From assembly GCA_045602085.1 (NCBI GenBank), contig JAZSAV010000039.1, positions 36,118 to 100,117 of the forward strand: a stretch of 64,000 nucleotides of DNA, in the 5' to 3' direction. Shown piece by piece: positions 1 through 8,160 of this stretch; position 1 is the stretch's first letter, and each line of letters begins with the position of its first letter. The position numbers were made by a program, and so were the translations under genes. Source of the DNA: Prevotella sp. (GTDB lineage: Bacteria > Bacteroidota > Bacteroidia > Bacteroidales > Bacteroidaceae). The notes beneath the pieces are model-generated. The model worked only from the letters and a program-made list of their open reading frames with translations. It made no database searches and was not told where the DNA came from.

Positions 1-1580
1 TCCTGCTCTGCATTATTTAGCATTTGAATGTTTGGAAAAGAGTTAGCTAATGCAAAACGTATCTGTGCATATTGTTTTTTTGATATATTATGACTTAATA
101 CGAAATTCAGTCGTGGTGAAATCTGTGTTATCCTGTTTTCACCATGAAGCTTGTATTGTAATGATGAAACACCGGGTCTGAATGTTAAGGTTGTACTATT
201 CCCTATTTGTTGTTTGTATAATGCTAGCAATATACTTTCTCCTGTCCAAAGATGTTGCCAAAGTCTTTTTTCTCCAGCATATGTGACGGAACTGACTTTA
301 TGAAAATGATGTAATTGGAATGCAATAGAACTCCTTTTCTTTAATTGTATTATGTAATTGATATTTGCAGATAGTTCATATAGGTTTTCTTTAGTATCCA
401 TCAATGTCGTATTGCTGTTTTCTTCATAAGTGCGTAAATATTCGTTAGTCGTATAGCTATTATTTAATGTCATCTTGATATTTTGCTTAGAGCTTATTTT
501 GAATTCACTATTTAAGTTAAGGGAAATTTTTGAAGCATCCTTCTCTATTATAGTTTGAGATGAATCCAATATGTTGTAAAGTTCACTATAGTTAAGTAAA
601 CTATTTGTTTTATTATTAAGTGCGCTATGTTCTAATATCAATTTTGCTTTTAAAATTCTTCTTTTATTATTGCTTGAGGCTGCAAACTGAAAATATTGGT
701 CGTTTTTCCTTGTCTCTTCATTTTTTGATTCTTTCTGTCGATGTAAATTGTAATCTGGGAAATAGAAAATTTCATTGCTATAATTGTTGTTTTTGTCGTG
801 TTCTTGAGTACTAAGTCCTGCGAATACATTGTAGTTTGTGCCTTCTTTGGCCAATTTCGTTGCAAAATTGTAGTCATAGTTAAGATAGCCCATTTTGTTA
901 GCTCCATCGAAAGATAAGTATCCACCTGATTTAAAAGTAACAAAATTAATAACAATCTCTTCTCCTATATATTTACCGTTTGGTACATCAATATACTCTA
1001 CCTTTTTAATTTCATGTGGTGACAAGTTTCTTACTTCGCGAAAATCTGCTTCTATCCCGTCAATAAATAGTGTGACATTGCACCCATAGTTTGAAATCTT
1101 TCCCGTAGATTTGTCAATATTCAATCCAGGAATCATCATATTGTACAGCAAATCATACCCATTTTGAGAATGTTTCTTATGTTCAGAGAGAGGGTGAATA
1201 ATAGTTCTGTCTGCCAAGCGGACGGTATTGCTTCCTACTACATATATTTCGTTTATGTTATTTATGTTTGATTTTAACGTAGCTGTAGGTAATACAGTAT
1301 TATTTTGTTTTACTGTAATTATTGTATCTTTGTTGATATATCCAATACAACTAAACTTGATAAGATAGTCCCCATTCTTGATATTCGCGAATTGGTAATT
1401 ACCAACACTATCAGTTTTTATACCTTGAATAAAGGTAGAGTCATTGAGGAATAATTTGACTGTTGCTAAAGGTATGGTTTGGCCATTTGAGTCCACCACT
1501 TTACCCTTTAAAATATTGTTTTTAGCGTAAATGTCAGAAATAAAAAGAATACATGTAAATATTAGAAAAATATGTTTCAT
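1..1580 (-). CDS. Outer-membrane beta-barrel/TonB-dependent-receptor-like protein with N-terminal carboxypeptidase-regulatory-like domain (runs off the left edge)
   Basis: Not in the ORF track. Manual translation from ATG 1580 gives MKHIFLIFTCILFISDIYAKNNILKGKVVDSNGQTIPLATVKLF...GIKTDSVGNYQF...YLIKFSCIGY, then a plug-like segment (NGYDLLYNMMIPGL...VEYIDVPNGKY). Frame was open in the segments checked. Confidence 0.75.
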   Translation of the reverse strand, partial: MKHIFLIFTCILFISDIYAKNNILKGKVVDSNGQTIPLATVKLFLNDSTFIQGIKTDSVGNYQFANIKNGDYLIKFSCIGYINKDTIITVKQNNTVLPTATLKSNINNINEIYVVGSNTVRLADRTIIHPLSEHKKHSQNGYDLLYNMMIPGLNIDKSTGKISNYGCNVTLFIDGIEADFREVRNLSPHEIKKVEYIDVPNGKYIGEEIVINFVTFKSGGYLSFDGANKMGYLNYDYNFATKLAKEGTNYNVFAGLSTQEHDKNNNYSNEIFYFPDYNLHRQKESKNEETRKNDQYFQFAASSNNKRRILKAKLILEHSALNNKTNSLLNYSELYNILDSSQTIIEKDASKISLNLNSEFKISSKQNIKMTLNNSYTTNEYLRTYEENSNTTLMDTKENLYELSANINYIIQLKKRSSIAFQLHHFHKVSSVTYAGEKRLWQHLWTGESILLALYKQQIGNSTTLTFRPGVSSLQYKLHGENRITQISPRLNFVLSHNISKKQYAQIRFALANSFPNIQMLNNAEQ

Positions 1581-1649
1581 ACCGAGTAAGTTTGTATTGT
1601 TTTAAAAGTGAGTAAATTTTATGTTTACTCACCTTTAAGGAATTGACTG

Positions 1650-1844
1650 TTAGACGGAGAACTCTGTACAAGTGAAGCATATGGTTAGGGTACATGCTAA
1701 ACTATCTAAATTGGATTGACTGAATAAATCAGCCATTTCACCCCCTAATAACGGATCCGTTTCTAATCTTTCTTCTAACTGCTGAATTGTAAACTCTGTT
1801 GTTAAATCCTCGTTTAGAGGAATCATACTCTTCTTTTTAGTCAT
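1650..1844 (-). CDS. Putative RiPP precursor peptide (64 aa)
   Basis: Starts 12 bp after the radical SAM stop; acidic leader (QQLEERLETDPLLGG) and C-terminal CTLTICFTC. Confidence 0.75.
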   Translation of the reverse strand: MTKKKSMIPLNEDLTTEFTIQQLEERLETDPLLGGEMADLFSQSNLDSLACTLTICFTCTEFSV

Positions 1845-1856
1845 CTCTTTAAAATT

Positions 1857-3242
1857 TTAATTAATACTATTTGAAACTAACTCGGAATAAATTTTCTGAC
1901 AGATATACTTTAAACGTAAACCATAATCATCACATATTGATTCTTGATTTCTTGACATTGCTTTAGCGTAACAACCTCCTCCACACAAAAATGCATATTT
2001 GCATTTAATGCATTTTTGTATATCCGTTATGTTTTTATTGAACCACTCATCTTTTTTCTTTGTCCAATTTAGTTTTGGTGAGTAAGTTCCAATGGCATTA
2101 TTTTGTTTTCCTACCATTTCAAGACAAGAAAAGATTCTACCATAAGGATCAAAAACGTAGGAATTACCATGCGCTACACAATGTATAGGAGAAAGTAACA
2201 ATCCTTTTTTATTTGTTAATGCAAATGAAATCTTTGAATACAAATTTGCTTCGAACTTAATTTTATTATTTGTGAGTTTCATTGCATCTAAAAAGTGTTT
2301 CCGAGACATATGTTTGCTTTTCAATGAATAATTATATTCAATCGGGTTAAAATTGCAATTACCAGAAATGTATTCTGCATAAACAGAGAAATTTTTCATA
2401 GAATAAAAGCCGTTATCTGTAAAATAATCATTCAATTCATGTAATGCCTCAATATTTTGAGAATCAACATTTATTCTTACTTGAATAGCGACATTTTTAT
2501 ATAGGGCTAATTTGATATTGTTGACTATCTTTTCAAAAGATTTGCCGTAAACAGCATGAATTCTTCTTGTATCATGTATGTGTTTGGGACCATCTATTGT
2601 TATTTGTATTCCTTTTAACTTATCTGGTGATAATAAATCTTCATAAGTGTCAATATCGTAACCATTACTTGTTGCAATGAATGTGAAACCATATTCTCTG
2701 CCTTTATTGATTATATATGTAACTATTTCTTTATTATCTTTGAGTAAAGGTTCACCTCCGAATAGTTGAATGCAATGATTGTGTAATTGGCTATTAGGTT
2801 CCAGTACTTTTATTGTTTCAAAAATTAAATCAACATATTCTTTTGTTATAGCTCTATTATTCTGTAATGATATGGTATCAATATTATCTTTTTCGAAGCA
2901 ATATGGGCATTTAAAATTACAATTATAGGTAACTAATATTGTAAATGATTTTTGCCACATATATTTATTCCTTTTTTGAAGGACTCGTACTATTCTTTTT
3001 GCATATTCCACCTCATCTTCTTCGCTCCACTTCGTAATGTAGCCTCTTTTTTCCAATGCCTCCATTGTTGTTTTAGAACATGGAATCTCTTCTTTGGAGA
3101 AATGTTTATGGTTTTGCAGGTACTCCGCAATATCTTTGCTGAGCACATCTATAGCCCCGGTATAGCCATGCATCATAAATACATTGTCAGGCTCGCTTTC
3201 GAGTGGCACAACGATTGAATATGATGAAAAACGATAATCCAT
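1857..3242 (-). CDS. Radical SAM/SPASM peptide maturase
   Basis: CNFKCPYC (CxxxCxxC), FGGEPLL, SPASM-type cysteines (C...C...CIKCKYAFLCGGGC...C); RRE-like N-terminal ~90 aa. Likely start is ATG 3242 (MDYRFSSY). Confidence 0.9.
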   Translation of the reverse strand: MDYRFSSYSIVVPLESEPDNVFMMHGYTGAIDVLSKDIAEYLQNHKHFSKEEIPCSKTTMEALEKRGYITKWSEEDEVEYAKRIVRVLQKRNKYMWQKSFTILVTYNCNFKCPYCFEKDNIDTISLQNNRAITKEYVDLIFETIKVLEPNSQLHNHCIQLFGGEPLLKDNKEIVTYIINKGREYGFTFIATSNGYDIDTYEDLLSPDKLKGIQITIDGPKHIHDTRRIHAVYGKSFEKIVNNIKLALYKNVAIQVRINVDSQNIEALHELNDYFTDNGFYSMKNFSVYAEYISGNCNFNPIEYNYSLKSKHMSRKHFLDAMKLTNNKIKFEANLYSKISFALTNKKGLLLSPIHCVAHGNSYVFDPYGRIFSCLEMVGKQNNAIGTYSPKLNWTKKKDEWFNKNITDIQKCIKCKYAFLCGGGCYAKAMSRNQESICDDYGLRLKYICQKIYSELVSNSIN

Positions 3243-3268
3243 AATCAGAATATATTGATGTCGTTCAT

Positions 3269-3646
3269 TTATATGATTGTCACAACCCCATAATAGCAAG
3301 TATTACCATTGATAATTCTCAGTTCATATTCGCCTGAAAGATTGTTTGGTAATACCAGCTCGTTTGTTCCCATAGGAATAACCACTTCATAACAGATATT
3401 TTCTGCTGCATCTACAATCTGCAATGTGTATCCATCACATGGAGTGGCAAAGTAAAGTATGTTGCCATTTAAATAGATGGTTGGGATGATTTCTGGAGTA
3501 CGAGGCTGTGGGTCTAAAATATCTTTTAAAGGTACATCACCAACATGAAGTTTTATCTGCTCGCCAACAAAATCCTGTTCTCCATTTGCAAATGACATCA
3601 TCGACATCATTAGCATGATTGCTGTAATAAATGTTTTCATCTTCAT
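3269..3646 (-). CDS. Small secreted DUF3244-like Ig-fold protein
   Basis: Signal peptide, PRTP motif, C-terminal GEYELRI...YYG typical of the Bacteroidota family. Confidence 0.65.
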   Translation of the reverse strand: MKMKTFITAIMLMMSMMSFANGEQDFVGEQIKLHVGDVPLKDILDPQPRTPEIIPTIYLNGNILYFATPCDGYTLQIVDAAENICYEVVIPMGTNELVLPNNLSGEYELRIINGNTCYYGVVTII

Positions 3647-3670
3647 AATTTATAGTTTTATTTACGTTGG

Positions 3671-3795
3671 CAAAATTATGAAAAGGAAATATAATAACAA
3701 AAAAAAGTGCGTACACTTTGTACACACCTAATTGGGGGTAAAAATAAGCTACTGTATTACAGGAGGATACGCTGGTAGTACATTTTGTACACACC
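3671..3795 (-). promoter_or_regulatory. TAnnTTTG promoter element plus two TTTGTACACACC direct repeats
   Basis: TAATTTTG on the minus strand near 3671-3678; 12-bp repeat at 3717-3728 and 3784-3795. Confidence 0.5.
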
Positions 3796-3803
3796 CAAAA
3801 GTT

Positions 3804-5423
3804 TTAAAGATTCTGCATGTTCTTGTTTAGTGAACCAGCTCCTTTCTCACCGAAAAGTTTCTGATTTGCGGTGCTTCTAATGTTTGTTACTCTCTGTTTC
3901 GTTAGAGAAAGCAGAACACCAATCATGGATGAGGAATAGCCCATTTTTGATAATAGGCAAACATGTATTTCTCTTTGTGTCAATTCTGGATTATTGTTCA
4001 TTAAGCGTTCACAGAAAGAAGGCATATACTTTTCCATCGCTTCGATGAAATCGTTTAATTCTTCATCTGATATTCTTTTGCCTGTTGTTGCAAGGACATC
4101 AAGATGCTGCATAATAGGACTTTCATATAATGCTCGTGAACAGTCCCATTTCTCTGTAGAGGTATTGTCGCCAAGAATAGATAATGATAATTTGAGTTCA
4201 GCCAATTCGGCTTCTTTAGTTTCTATATATTTATTATGGTCTCTCCTAAGTAACTTTAGGTCGAATGCCGTTTCTTTGTATTTGTTTAAAGTGTCCTTGT
4301 ATATGGCTTCTGCTTTGTTTATTCTTTTCTTTTGCCTAATAATATATAATGTAATGATAAAGGCAAGTGAGCAACCCAAAAGACAGAACAAGAGCATGGA
4401 GTTTCTATATCGTTCTGCTTCTTGCTCTTTTATTTTTGCCTGTCGTCTGCTCGCATTATAGTTGTAAAGCGCGTTGGCTCTATTTATCTCTTCTGCTGAA
4501 CTGATTAGGCAAGCAGAGTCGTTGGCATTGGCAAAGAGCAGAGAGTATTTCATAACGGAGTCTGGTTTGCCGAGTTTGTGGTAAACTTCCATCAGACCCT
4601 TATAGGCATTTTCATAATATACAGATTTATTGCTATTATTGAGAAATTTTTTATAGAAATAAAGTGCAGAATCTACCTTATTGATGCCATTGTAATATTT
4701 TGCCTTATAATAATAGAATAATATTCTTTTTTTAGAGGTGTTTACAGAATCGTCAAACAAATTCATTTTAGTTTCAAACAAATCTATCAAAGGCTTGGCT
4801 CTGTCATATTGTCCATTGTTTAAATATGTTGCAAAAAGGGAAGGCAAAACGGCATACGCCTGTTTTTCATGACCTAATTTCATATGAATATTATATGATT
4901 CTTGTCCTATATGCAATACGGAATCATAACGACCTGTTAAATCGTATATAGATGCTAAATGTGAATAGAAGTTAAGTATGGCAAGTGTGTCATTGCATTT
5001 CATTGCTATATGAAGAGCATTTAAATTTGCTTCTTTTGCAAACTTTGGTGATCGCTGATAGTAAAACAAATCTGCCATCTGTCCATAAATCCTACTCAGT
5101 CGTTGGAAGTCGCAATCGGCATCGGTGGTGTCTGCCTTGCTTACGGCATCGTGGTAGCACTCAAGGGCACGAGGGGCATCGCCAAGGTCGCGATAGACGC
5201 AGCCGAGGAGATAGTGGGCGAGCATCTGCTCGTTGGCAGTGCCGTGGCTGTCGTAGTAATCGACAACGCGCAGCATGGTGCTGTCGGTGGTGAACGGTTC
5301 GAAGTTCTCGTTCTGTGCTTTTGCCTGCATCAGGGCTTCGTGCATCTGCCTGCTGTCTTCGCCTGTGCAAGCGAAGAATGTGAGCAAGGCAAAAAGTATA
5401 ACCAATATATTTCTCGTAAACAT
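3804..5423 (-). CDS. TPR-repeat lipoprotein-like sensor with transmembrane helix and C-terminal LuxR-type HTH
   Basis: Lipobox-like FFAC, TPR-like helices, TM segment MLLFCLLGCSLAFIITLYII, LTQREIHVCLL...RVTNIR HTH. Likely start 5423. Confidence 0.75.
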   Translation of the reverse strand: MFTRNILVILFALLTFFACTGEDSRQMHEALMQAKAQNENFEPFTTDSTMLRVVDYYDSHGTANEQMLAHYLLGCVYRDLGDAPRALECYHDAVSKADTTDADCDFQRLSRIYGQMADLFYYQRSPKFAKEANLNALHIAMKCNDTLAILNFYSHLASIYDLTGRYDSVLHIGQESYNIHMKLGHEKQAYAVLPSLFATYLNNGQYDRAKPLIDLFETKMNLFDDSVNTSKKRILFYYYKAKYYNGINKVDSALYFYKKFLNNSNKSVYYENAYKGLMEVYHKLGKPDSVMKYSLLFANANDSACLISSAEEINRANALYNYNASRRQAKIKEQEAERYRNSMLLFCLLGCSLAFIITLYIIRQKKRINKAEAIYKDTLNKYKETAFDLKLLRRDHNKYIETKEAELAELKLSLSILGDNTSTEKWDCSRALYESPIMQHLDVLATTGKRISDEELNDFIEAMEKYMPSFCERLMNNNPELTQREIHVCLLSKMGYSSSMIGVLLSLTKQRVTNIRSTANQKLFGEKGAGSLNKNMQNL

Positions 5424-5602
5424 CTTTATATGATAACTGGTCTTTAGTCTATGCAAAGGTACAATATAATTTTGATTATGCGAAAAATAGTCTTGTTAAA
5501 CTTGTCTGGTTGTTAACTAGCGTTAAATGCAAGGCGCTTTGGACGTTAATAGTTTGATTTGTTTTTGTCAAATATAAAACCTGTTTGCCATAGCCGAAAA
5601 GA

Positions 5603-5699
5603 GAGAAATGCCAGATCTCGGGGCGAGAAGTGCCAGATCTCTCATCGAGAAGTGCCAGTTCTCTGAACGAGAAGTGCCAGTTCGTTAAATTGGCACTTC
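5603..5699 (+). repeat. Four 22-bp tandem repeats plus an inverted half-copy
   Basis: GAGAAGTGCCAG(A/T)TC core at 5603, 5625, 5647, 5669; TGGCACTTC at 5691-5699. Confidence 0.9.
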
Positions 5700-5994
5700 C
5701 TGACAATATGCGCAAGAATACAGATTCTTTTAGCAGTTTTTAAGTTTATTGTGTGAAAATTTGTATATCTAAATTTTAAATGTTACTTTTGCAATGAGAC
5801 AATTAATCCAGATCATTACGCGTTCTGAACTTCAAAGAGAATATATTCTCACCGCCTCGCCTCTAACACCATTCGCATTACACCAAGGACCATTTTTCGG
5901 GTGAGTGTGGGTAAGTCTCGGACAGACAAGATGTCTAAGGAAGTTCGTTGCATAGGATATTAGCAAACGTATAAACTTATAATATCTTGATGTT

Positions 5995-7464
5995 ATGAAC
6001 AGTAATGGATTTTTTAGTTTTGTGCCTAAGGAACCGCTTGGTAGGAGCGAGTTCGGCAAGATGTGTAATAGTCTTTCTGAGTTTGTCAAAATCATTTTCG
6101 AACTTTTTGAATGGTTTGGGGCAAACGAGGAAGACGAGCGTGTTTGTACATTGCAGTATCTGGGCTATAAACTTTACCGTGCCTTGGATATGGCAAAGAA
6201 ACTCTATGATGAGCGAGGCATGCTGCTTCGTGATGAGCATTGTACTGATTTTGAGTCTTACCTGAAAGAGCTTGACGGGAAGGTGAGGAAAATAAACAGG
6301 TTTATTGGTGAAGCCGATGAACTGCTTGCCCATGCCTTTAAGGACAACTCGCCGCTTCTGGACTTTGGCAAGAGGCGGCTTATCTCAAAATTCAAAGTGC
6401 ATACGGCGTGGACAAAAGAACTTTTTGCTTCTGAACAGCTGCAGGCTTTGGCATCAGAAAAGTGCGAGTGTCTGAATCTGCGCTACGACATTAATGGGCT
6501 GAGAGACATAAATGATGATTTCAGACGCCAGACATATTCGTTGCTTGATGTAATGATTCTTTTTTCTATACCGTCGCATGTTTTTGCAGCAAGACAGGAT
6601 TTTGCTGCTTTGATGCAGAACACTATTGCTGCTTTTAAGAATAGCGAAAAGTGGAAAGAATACCGTATGTGCTTTTCTGTTCAGCTTGACGAAGAGTTCA
6701 GGGCAAGTGATTTGGCAGACGAAAAAGAGTGGGAGTTTCTTAAAAACAAGTATAACGAACTGTCGGCAAAGCGTAAGGATTTTCTTTCGGTGTATGGCAT
6801 TATGCCAATAAGTCTGTCAACAGAAATGGGCATGGCCACAATGGGCATGCACCTTTACGAACGCCTCAATGGCATTTGCCTGTCGGGCGAGGATGAAAAG
6901 CCTCACAAGAAAATGAGCGATGCAGCCCTCTGTAATTATCTGATGATGGAGGCCTCCTTGCAGCTGCTTTCAGGCAAGATAGAAATACTACGGCCAAAGA
7001 AATGCGACCAATGTAATGAAGCCAAGCGTTTCGGAGCATTTGCAAATGGTGTGGACGAGGGGCAGTTGGCTGTGGCCATAAATGATGTTTATCAGTGTTT
7101 CTTCGGTAATAACAAAACAGCAAGCTTTACAACAAAATACGCCAAAGAAATAGATTTGATGGCATATCTGTTTATAACGCTGGACAAGCTGAATATCGGG
7201 AACCATAATTTTGCAGAAAGAGGCAGGAAGACATTCTATGATTTCTGCATAAAAAAGGCTGGCATAAAAACAGACAGCACTGACAGGACATTCTATAATA
7301 GGCTGACCCGAAATTTTAATATGGTGCATAAGAACATAAAAAACAAGTGTCTGGTAATGTCTGACCGTAATAATCCTGTCTTTAGAGATTTCCAAACCGT
7401 CAGCAGAAAGTTTCAAGAAACAAAATTTTATAAGGAATTTTCTTCAAGCCAAAGACAGGGGTAA
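5995..7464 (+). CDS. Hypothetical protein (489 aa)
   Basis: Long ORF; no motif recognised. Confidence 0.7.
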   Translation: MNSNGFFSFVPKEPLGRSEFGKMCNSLSEFVKIIFELFEWFGANEEDERVCTLQYLGYKLYRALDMAKKLYDERGMLLRDEHCTDFESYLKELDGKVRKINRFIGEADELLAHAFKDNSPLLDFGKRRLISKFKVHTAWTKELFASEQLQALASEKCECLNLRYDINGLRDINDDFRRQTYSLLDVMILFSIPSHVFAARQDFAALMQNTIAAFKNSEKWKEYRMCFSVQLDEEFRASDLADEKEWEFLKNKYNELSAKRKDFLSVYGIMPISLSTEMGMATMGMHLYERLNGICLSGEDEKPHKKMSDAALCNYLMMEASLQLLSGKIEILRPKKCDQCNEAKRFGAFANGVDEGQLAVAINDVYQCFFGNNKTASFTTKYAKEIDLMAYLFITLDKLNIGNHNFAERGRKTFYDFCIKKAGIKTDSTDRTFYNRLTRNFNMVHKNIKNKCLVMSDRNNPVFRDFQTVSRKFQETKFYKEFSSSQRQG

Positions 7465-7510
7465 TGGTGAATGTCAGAGGTGCTGTAATAATGGAAATGT
7501 TAGCCTATTC

Positions 7511-7553
7511 ACAGGGGAGAACCGAACGCATGAGTACGGTTCTCCCTTGTTTT
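7511..7553 (+). terminator. Intrinsic terminator
   Basis: ACAGGGGAGAACCG...CGGTTCTCCCTTGT hairpin followed by T-run. Confidence 0.75.
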
Positions 7554-7716
7554 TCCACGCAGAAATGATAAATTTCCACTCACTTGATTTCCTTTCTCTT
7601 TGTTGCTAACTTTGCCTCAGTCAATCACGAAAAGTGTTGGCGGCTTGCAAGCAAACGCTGCGACGGCAGCAATGTGAGAACAAAAAACATTGTTAAATTA
7701 AAAAAATCAATTTATT

Positions 7717-8160
7717 ATGGCAAAGTTACTAACAAGAAAGTATCAAAGCACAAATCAGAAGTCAACAACATTCGGTAAGTGGTATGGTCGTATTGTACAC
7801 ACGGAAACACTTTCAACCGAGCAGTTCGTTAACCACATCTGCAGTCATGGTTCGCCATTTGACCGTGCTACAATAACGGGAGTGCTTGTAGCAGCATGCG
7901 ACTGCCTGGTAGAACTGGTGCTCGACTCAAAGAAGGTGCGTCTGGGAGATTTGGGAACATTCTACCTCAGTGCCGAAACAGAACCAGGCGACAGTGCGGA
8001 GGAGTTTACCGACGACAACGTGAAGAAGGTACACTTGCGTTTTCTGCCTAATTTGAAGCAGAGCTATCCGCTTGATTCTGTGTCTATGAGAGGCAAGGCT
8101 TCGTTTGCTGACCTGAATTCACTTGCTGGAAAAACAGAGAGTTCTGCATCGGGAGAATAG
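7717..8160 (+). CDS. HU-related DNA-binding protein (Bacteroidota type)
   Basis: LVLDSKKVRLGDLGTFYLS...VHLRFLP; TAACTTTG promoter motif upstream. Confidence 0.85.
   Translation: MAKLLTRKYQSTNQKSTTFGKWYGRIVHTETLSTEQFVNHICSHGSPFDRATITGVLVAACDCLVELVLDSKKVRLGDLGTFYLSAETEPGDSAEEFTDDNVKKVHLRFLPNLKQSYPLDSVSMRGKASFADLNSLAGKTESSASGE

Follow-up and report, generated by a model that had tools for sequence, protein, structure and literature searches.

A radical SAM/SPASM peptide cassette with hypervariable cysteine-rich precursors in Bacteroidota

Genes of the cassette

The window analysed here is a 64,000-nucleotide stretch of a Prevotella genome (contig C39 positions 36118-100117). Its first 5.5 kb hold five co-oriented open reading frames (ORFs) on the minus strand. 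In the order of transcription they encode a putative regulator, a small secreted protein, a radical S-adenosylmethionine (SAM)/SPASM enzyme, a short cysteine-rich peptide and the first part of an outer-membrane protein. The last gene extends past the left boundary of the window, and the left flank was examined as locus L001 (C39:22000-41500), where a membrane protease and two further envelope proteins are encoded. This locus is probably one copy of a widespread, uncharacterised Bacteroidota cassette for a ribosomally made peptide with modifications added after translation (RiPP), the product of which would be small and cross-linked through its cysteines. A first-pass annotation of the window had described the radical SAM/SPASM gene, the 64-aa peptide and a TonB-receptor-like neighbour. 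All three lie where it placed them, on the minus strand, with sequences and translations identical to its description.

The precursor peptide family

The precursor gene comprises 64 codons plus a stop (1650-1844, minus strand) and encodes MTKKKSMIPLNEDLTTEFTIQQLEERLETDPLLGGEMADLFSQSNLDSLACTLTICFTCTEFSV, which contains three cysteines. Its leader spans approximately residues 1-35 (window 1740-1844). Residues 36-64 (1653-1739) form a linker and a cysteine-rich core in which the cysteines are arranged as C-TLTI-C-FT-C-TEFSV. A word-based search recovers only three relatives of this peptide. A much larger family emerges from the ORFs directly downstream of homologues of the radical SAM gene, which were inspected in 80 loci from genomes and as many from metagenomes. 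In 87 of the 99 loci with close homologues of the enzyme, its gene is followed by a small same-strand ORF with the leader ...SLNxxLxxEFxIxELExRLETDPLxxGGLxD..., and the remaining 12 loci are mostly truncated, frameshifted or carry a variant leader. The peptide is therefore conserved beside the enzyme, a check that the first-pass annotation had proposed. The ORF is a genuine precursor gene, far beyond what chance would produce.

An alignment of 47 of these peptides separates a conserved leader from a region after it that is hypervariable throughout. Leader residues L23, E24 and E28 are invariant, and conservation reaches 90% or more at L10, N11, R26, L27, T29 and P31. A profile built from the 47 peptides was run against 1.84 billion proteins and matches 344 cluster representatives at E<=1e-3, of which 182 pass E<=1e-10. 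The motif LExRLE continues as TDPL in 126 of the best 150 family representatives. Two glycines follow TDPxx in 70 of these 150 leaders (~47%), so this position is not a conserved double-glycine cleavage site.

The cores of the same 150 representatives mostly contain two to five cysteines, with a range of one to nine and variable spacing. Cysteine accounts for 16.5% of core residues and is the only residue that is conserved or enriched. Phenylalanine (6.5%), tyrosine (3.5%) and tryptophan (1.4%) show no positional conservation. The window peptide falls into a subgroup whose cores follow the pattern CFTC-x2-4-CF[TS]C-[GT]EF. Its relative P0123 is 92% identical and has four cysteines; three consecutive residues differ between the two, CFT being replaced by SLA in the allele with three. 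The exact peptide is present on 23 contigs, which indicates a maintained allele, and the source genome carries only one such peptide.

As the first-pass annotation had stated, the precursor cannot be assigned to a named family. No Pfam or NCBIfam model matches it at E<=0.1, and ten family members searched against both collections at E<=10 return nothing beyond two irrelevant weak matches. The models PF14406, TIGR04139, TIGR04149 (GG-Bmod) and those for SCIFF peptides do not match. In the literature searched, no paper describes the precursor and the motif RLETDP does not occur; PMC10288494 and PMC11953309 yielded nothing specific. A survey of Bacteroidales RiPPs describes clusters with peptidase-containing ATP-binding cassette transporters (PCAT) and double-glycine leaders, LanC-like clusters and YcaO clusters, not the present architecture (PMC10352776).

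A perfect 15-bp hairpin (1602-1638, minus strand) begins 12 nt past the precursor stop codon, with a folding energy of -15.4 kcal/mol and a z-score of -4.0 relative to shuffled sequences. Comparable structures recur across the family: 49% of 68 distinct 70-nt segments following precursor genes have z<-2, versus 5% of control windows. The hairpin likely acts as a partial terminator or mRNA stabiliser. An Rfam scan of window 1-8000 yields nothing relevant.

The radical SAM/SPASM enzyme

The adjacent gene (1857-3242, minus strand, with its ATG at 3242) encodes a 461-aa radical SAM/SPASM peptide maturase recognized by Pfam Radical_SAM and Fer4_12 and by the NCBIfam SPASM model. Radical_SAM scores 48.4 bits against a cut-off of 29.5, and SPASM (TIGR04085) scores 50.4 bits against a cut-off of 27. 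The CxxxCxxC motif, CNFKCPYC at C108, C112 and C115, is invariant in alignments of homologues, as are seven SPASM cysteines (C355, C373, C411, C414, C420, C424 and C437). Among the candidates scored, 831 homologues are found at E<=1e-3, with named members from Butyricimonas, Parabacteroides and Bacteroides.

Family-level models place the enzyme near maturases of cysteine-rich peptides. There are roughly 54 sub-threshold NCBIfam family matches, and the top four are all of this kind. The best is the geopeptide maturase TIGR04280, which aligns over nearly the full length at 8e-36 with 124 bits against a cut-off of 400. It is followed by the maturase TIGR04463 (119 bits, cut-off 525), CefB NF038107 (116 bits, cut-off 600) and PapB NF047865 (115 bits, cut-off 340). 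The SCIFF maturase TIGR03974 scores 74 bits against 425. No curated NCBIfam equivalog cut-off is reached, and all lie far above the scores obtained. The closest solved structure is that of the thioether synthase CteB (5WGG), detected at 1.5e-13 with the single sequence and at 1.6e-22 with a profile, and anSME, ChlB and TigE come next in the PDB ranking. The enzyme also scores against the cyclophane and ether models DynA, YhhB and FxsB, and against anSME.

A RiPP recognition element (RRE) may occupy the N terminus of the enzyme, where full-length maturase models align from about residue 23 and TigE (8VPO) aligns from residue 5. A profile comparison of this putative RRE-type region with the N-terminal domain of the cassette protease described below gives no signal.

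Since the cores are enriched in cysteine and the nearest relatives of the enzyme act on cysteine-rich peptides or form thioethers, the most likely chemistry is thioether cross-linking of core cysteines, of the ranthipeptide or sactipeptide type. The first-pass annotation had listed both thioethers and aromatic cyclophanes as products of SPASM enzymes. The first of these options is favoured here. The second has lost ground, because aromatic residues are neither conserved nor enriched in the cores.

Proteins of the cell envelope

The gene after the precursor encodes a divergent outer-membrane protein resembling TonB-dependent transporters (TBDTs). The window holds its 5' part, 526 of 754 codons (1-1580, minus strand), and the gene continues left to C39:35433. 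The protein consists of a signal peptide, a CarboxypepD_reg domain, a putative TonB box (NEIYVVGS, with the family consensus LxEVxVxGS) after that domain, a plug-like region and a beta-barrel. Pfam detects CarbopepD_reg_2 at 3e-13; Plug and TonB_dep_Rec do not match, and a PDB sequence search with the protein returns nothing. Plug and TonB_dep_Rec are carried by its distant sequence relatives. An AlphaFold2 (AF2) model built with 31 homologues has a mean predicted local distance difference test score (pLDDT) of 84.7 and a predicted template modelling score (pTM) of 0.71. Foldseek aligns it over 650-720 columns to the PDB structures of ChuA, ShuA, BtuB, PirA, OprC and Cir, with E values of approximately 1e-18 and template modelling scores of 0.5-0.66, and gives 199 matches in all at E<=1e-3. 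The modelled protein thus has a TBDT fold, the one defined by a 22-strand barrel and an N-terminal plug, and calling it TonB-receptor-like was right at the fold level. Transport direction cannot be deduced from this fold. In 63 of 83 related loci (76%) the precursor gene is followed immediately by that of the barrel, and in 14 of the 83 by that of the protease.

Left of the window lies a 399-aa HExxH protein, in which an N-terminal β3α3 domain precedes transmembrane helices. It matches the NCBIfam model for daptide intramembrane metalloproteases at 1e-32 (114 against a cut-off of 300), the YydH/LiaK epipeptide protease model at 6e-15 (55 against 225) and, below threshold, Pfam M50 at 1e-4. HEIGH at residues 167-171 and NPFFKFDG (N257, P258, D263 and G264) show no variation among 17 homologues. 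The combination of HExxH in a transmembrane helix with NPxxxxDG is that of M50/site-2-protease enzymes, and a profile of the protein reaches the archaeal site-2 protease 3B4R at 1.5e-3. In the AF2 model (pLDDT 87.6), residues 8-82 fold into three beta-strands and three helices, after which the transmembrane helices come, and this modelled topology makes the N-terminal domain a probable RRE.

The first-pass annotation had advised looking left of the window for a peptidase or a C39 transporter. The peptidase is present in the form of this intramembrane HExxH/M50 protein. The transporter is not: no ABC or C39 gene occurs in C39:22000-41500, within 14 kb to the left or 6 kb to the right, nor in four further loci (L082-L085).

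In one metagenome-assembled genome (MAG), a single open frame of 1094 aa (L008 3142-6426) spans both the protease and the barrel. Joining a protease of the inner membrane to a barrel of the outer membrane would be odd; the frame may reflect a genuine fusion, read-through or an error of assembly.

Two more envelope proteins are encoded left of the window. The gene after the protease specifies a polytopic Wzy_C membrane protein with C-terminal tetratricopeptide repeats (TPRs), about 650 aa long if counted from Met85. A longer ORF of 736 aa, which shares 268 nt with the end of the protease gene in a different frame (L001 12228-12495), was rejected as an over-extension. The corresponding genes called in L084 overlap by just 14 nt, so translation probably starts at Met85. 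The other protein is a 607-aa lipoprotein with a transglutaminase core.

Upstream genes

The ORF preceding the enzyme gene (3269-3646, minus strand) encodes a small secreted protein of 125 aa with a signal peptide and a DUF3244-like sequence (Pfam E 9e-4, below the cut-off). The genes at the equivalent position in L084 and L085 match PF11589 and PF18962, and the L084 homologue has a C-terminal sorting domain of the type IX secretion system (T9SS). A pairwise comparison of the window protein with its L084 counterpart gives E 4e-4.

A terminator-like hairpin with a T-run (3705-3729, minus strand) separates this DUF3244-radical SAM operon from the gene of a putative transmembrane one-component regulator (3804-5423, minus strand). 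The predicted protein has a lipoprotein signal, TPRs, one transmembrane helix (residues 355-373), a coiled coil and a putative LuxR-like helix-turn-helix (HTH) at the C terminus. The repeats match Pfam TPR models, and the NCBIfam model BT3442_fam matches at 1.5e-6. Homologues occupy the equivalent position in L005 and L084, with E 5e-41 over the full length for the latter. The HTH was spotted by eye; it has no Pfam match and finds NarL-type response regulators only at E 0.7-0.9. With no model match and only these weak PDB matches, a LuxR-type HTH is not confirmed.

Conservation of the gene set

The extent of the cassette was assessed by tblastn of the window proteins against all loci, and by reading the gene calls of L082-L085. 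A recurring set of eight is found: the TPR transmembrane regulator, the DUF3244 protein (with a T9SS tail), the transglutaminase-like protein, the radical SAM enzyme, one or more precursors, the TBDT-like barrel, the HExxH protease and the Wzy_C-TPR protein. The full set is found again, in altered gene order, in L002, L005, L006 and L082-L085. It was seen in Segatella copri, Paraprevotella clara and a Prevotella MAG, as well as in several metagenomes. Depending on the locus, the gene for the transglutaminase-like protein lies upstream or downstream.

Beyond the Bacteroidales, a smaller core is kept, consisting of the radical SAM enzyme, a precursor with a similar leader and the HExxH protease. 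It is carried by another Bacteroidota MAG, Ignavibacteria, Balneola (Balneolales), Melioribacteraceae, Petrocella and a Clostridium (Firmicutes). The partner in these organisms is a protein of about 700 aa that resembles the alpha/alpha-toroids of squalene cyclases and prenyltransferases. The transglutaminase-like protein was considered as its counterpart and rejected, the two having no sequence similarity.

Three tandem precursors occur in Petrocella sp. (L012 10337-10987), with a related leader (INKxIDxxxxDERLxxELExRxxM) and cores rich in alanine, cysteine and asparagine (ACxxN...). They adjoin genes for the radical SAM enzyme, the squalene-cyclase-like protein and the HExxH protease, and this locus is a Firmicutes branch of the core system. 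In the Ignavibacteria relative, a domain resembling lipid A acyltransferases is fused to a PqqD domain and encoded between the precursor and the protease (L010 3024-4181), which hints at peptide acylation in that branch.

Comparison with known systems

The pairing of a radical SAM/SPASM enzyme that bears an RRE, here a putative one, with a short cysteine-rich precursor is shared with the ranthipeptide/SCIFF and freyrasin systems (CteB, Tte1186 and PapB) and with sactipeptide synthases. CteB provides the closest solved structure, and the models for PapB and the SCIFF maturase match clearly, though below threshold. Unlike the ranthipeptide and freyrasin systems of Firmicutes, the present cassette has a distinct leader family and a precursor without a SCIFF model match. 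It also includes an M50 protease with an RRE-like domain, the TBDT-like barrel, the Wzy_C/TPR protein and the transglutaminase-like lipoprotein, and its hosts are Gram-negative Bacteroidota. The geopeptide system, which is computationally defined and unstudied, supplies the best NCBIfam model for the enzyme (TIGR04280). Its precursor, however, is related to the present one in neither sequence nor length, and the two systems have different accessory genes.

The protease resembles the leader peptidases of daptide (MpaP-type) and epipeptide (YydH/LiaK-type) systems, in that both models match it, it has HExxH and NPxxxxDG motifs and its gene is part of a RiPP operon. Its scores reach neither cut-off, however, and it carries a β3α3 domain fused to its N terminus. 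Its partner is a SPASM enzyme, whereas the known proteases accompany daptide enzymes or the YydG epimerase.

Loci of Bacteroidetes that combine graspetides with SPASM enzymes carry proteins related to TonB-dependent receptors, which have been proposed as exporters (Makarova et al. 2022, PMC8939145). These loci share with the cassette hypervariable precursors, a SPASM enzyme, a TBDT-related outer-membrane protein and Bacteroidetes hosts. The cassette differs from them in lacking an ATP-grasp ligase and in its protease and membrane partners. Two further parallels are functional analogies only. The RiPP methanobactin (MbnA) is paired with a dedicated TBDT, MbnT, for re-uptake, and Oar of Myxococcus is a CarboxypepD_reg-TBDT that acts in secretion. 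Neither MbnT nor Oar is related in sequence to the cassette beyond the TBDT fold.

The cassette is common in gut metagenomes, where hundreds of distinct precursors are found. In the guts of many humans and animals, Prevotella, Segatella and related Bacteroidales are dominant. To our knowledge, no modified peptide from these bacteria has been characterised so far, and we know of no RiPP system that employs an M50 protease with a probable RRE, a TBDT-type barrel, a Wzy_C/TPR protein or a transglutaminase-like lipoprotein. With the antiSMASH ranthipeptide rule (TIGR03973), ranthipeptide clusters appear largely absent from Bacteroidota (PMC13289728). The cassette is missed by this SCIFF-based rule. 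Identification of its product would reveal the chemistry of this clade of radical SAM enzymes and how, in Gram-negative anaerobes, such peptides are processed and transported when no ABC/C39 exporter is present. It would also show whether hypervariable cores serve antagonism, signalling or strain recognition.

Proposed pathway and alternatives

The gene content, conservation, co-localisation, folds and motifs of the cassette are established by this analysis. From them we infer a pathway that covers thioether chemistry, protease cleavage, a direction of transport and a biological role. The acidic leader (LNxxLxxEFxIxELExRLETDP) would bind to a recognition domain at the N terminus of the radical SAM/SPASM enzyme in the cytoplasm. 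This enzyme, with three Fe-S clusters, would then cross-link the core cysteines, most probably as thioethers between cysteine sulfur and carbon. By analogy with MpaP and YydH, the intramembrane HExxH/NPxxxxDG protease, which has its own β3α3 domain resembling leader-recognition elements, would remove the leader at the inner membrane. The Wzy_C/TPR protein, the transglutaminase-like lipoprotein, the TBDT-like barrel and the DUF3244/T9SS-type protein would act in the envelope, where the product may be transported, trimmed, decorated or taken up by them. Operon expression may be under the control of the TPR-TM-HTH protein (TM, transmembrane) encoded upstream, and the hairpin after the precursor probably raises the level of precursor mRNA above that of enzyme mRNA. 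The product could serve in antagonism, in signalling or, less likely, in metal binding.

Several observations weigh against this account of a cysteine-cross-linked RiPP and its processing. The enzyme is about equally distant from several SPASM families and passes the cut-off of none, so the type of cross-link, and even the involvement of cysteine, is inferred. The window peptide retains three of the four cysteines of P0123, having lost one. A Foldseek search of the protease model against the PDB gives nothing significant, the best matches being weak but fitting ones to SpoIVFB (E 0.18) and the lasso-peptide RRE TbiB1 (E 1.7). The cassette has no recognisable inner-membrane exporter. Finally, the barrel is absent from approximately 17% of related loci and is thus not essential to the core pathway.

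Among more specific proposals for the product, the one that fares best is that it is a secreted, bacteriocin-like ranthipeptide or sactipeptide which would leave through the outer membrane by way of the barrel. A conserved leader combined with hypervariable cores is typical of RiPPs that act in antagonism, the distribution of the cassette is sporadic and island-like, and proteins related to TonB-dependent receptors are among the predicted exporters in Bacteroidetes RiPP loci (PMC8939145). Yet no immunity gene is recognised in the cassette, TBDTs normally import, and ranthipeptides as a class have no well-documented antimicrobial activity (PMC13289728). This role is possible, and we hold it only tentatively.

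Import, the default function of TBDTs, speaks for a peptide that acts as a signal. Here, each hypervariable peptide would be a strain-specific pherotype that is released, retaken or sensed via its cognate barrel and detected in the periplasm by the TPRs of the regulator, which would autoinduce the operon. Many loci have a conserved upstream gene for a TPR-TM-HTH-like protein, and neither an immunity gene nor an ABC exporter is evident. The barrel is also among the fastest-diverging cassette proteins, with 23-38% identity versus 42-50% for the radical SAM enzyme in the same loci, alongside the hypervariable cores. However, the regulator's HTH is supported by no model, the protein could respond to anything, and the loci that lack a barrel fit poorly. 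We regard it as unlikely.

A different objection concerns the chemistry. The enzyme could install aromatic C-C or C-O cyclophanes, epimerise residues or oxidise cysteine as in formylglycine formation. It meets no thioether-family cut-off, it scores against DynA, YhhB, FxsB and anSME, and the window core contains two phenylalanines. The composition of the 150 representative cores, in which only cysteine is enriched and no aromatic residue is positionally conserved, argues against this, as do the top-scoring families and the closest structure, all of which are cysteine-peptide and thioether enzymes. Chemistry other than thioether formation is therefore improbable.

It is similarly improbable that the cassette defines a new envelope route for RiPPs in Bacteroidota and does not make a free bacteriocin. 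In such a route, the RRE-fused M50 protease would free the thioether peptide at the inner membrane, and a glycan, a lipid or a surface acceptor would then be linked to it by the ligase-like Wzy_C/TPR protein. Trimming or transfer would fall to the transglutaminase-like lipoprotein, and the peptide would be displayed, or exchanged via the cognate barrel, as a hypervariable determinant of strain identity sensed by the TPR-TM-HTH regulator.

Very unlikely is a metallophore with free or partly free CxxC-type cysteines, re-imported as a metal complex by the barrel in the manner of methanobactin and MbnT: the CFTC-x2-4-CF[TS]C pattern of the window subgroup resembles a metal knuckle and a TBDT-fold protein directly follows the precursor in 76% of loci, but cysteine number and spacing are hypervariable, unlike a conserved metal site, the cassette has no metal-related genes or regulators, and radical SAM/SPASM enzymes beside cysteine peptides usually consume thiols.

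Acquisition and surroundings of the cassette

The cassette DNA is visibly richer in A and T than the core genes, as the first-pass annotation had noted. Its GC content is 28-34% (0.28-0.34 across window 1-3000) and that of the core genes is about 50% (0.45-0.56 past ~9.5 kb). The left edge of the AT-rich block is marked by a fragment of an ISL3-family transposase (L001 7815-8486, minus strand), which comprises 223 aa of the C-terminal part only and abuts the transglutaminase-like gene. Farther left are core genes for an FKBP and an aspartate dehydrogenase. Among 301 genomes sampled across the same family, only 5 have a homologue of the radical SAM enzyme at E<=1e-40. Low GC content, the adjacent ISL3 remnant and this rarity together indicate horizontal acquisition, and support the view that this copy arrived recently. 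A search for empty sites in same-genus genomes yielded no island borders because these genomes are too divergent; similarity, at ~72-74% identity, is restricted to the FKBP gene.

Several neighbouring genes lie outside the cassette. Left of the window on the plus strand is a tandem pair of protein-kinase-like genes encoding 359 and 537 aa (C39:22976-27123, L001 977-5124), with Pkinase/ABC1 matches and, in one of them, a weak TCAD9 match. They are followed by a DUF4407 gene, and a gene for an MntA-like nucleotidyltransferase is nearby (L001 6007-6369). This group may be a defence or conflict module. HU-HIG genes, in which HU is fused to winged HTH (wHTH) and immunoglobulin-like (Ig) domains, flank the cassette both in the window (7717-8160, plus strand) and in L084 (4846-5442 and 17446-17907). 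Between the regulator gene and the HU-HIG gene of the window lies a 489-aa ORF (5995-7464, plus strand) that has no Pfam match. Dispersed short repeats of ~30-120 nt with 80-93% identity occur in the intergenic region between the aspartate dehydrogenase and FKBP genes (L001 ~7200-7350) and at more than 25 other sites, and such repeats also occur in a same-genus genome.

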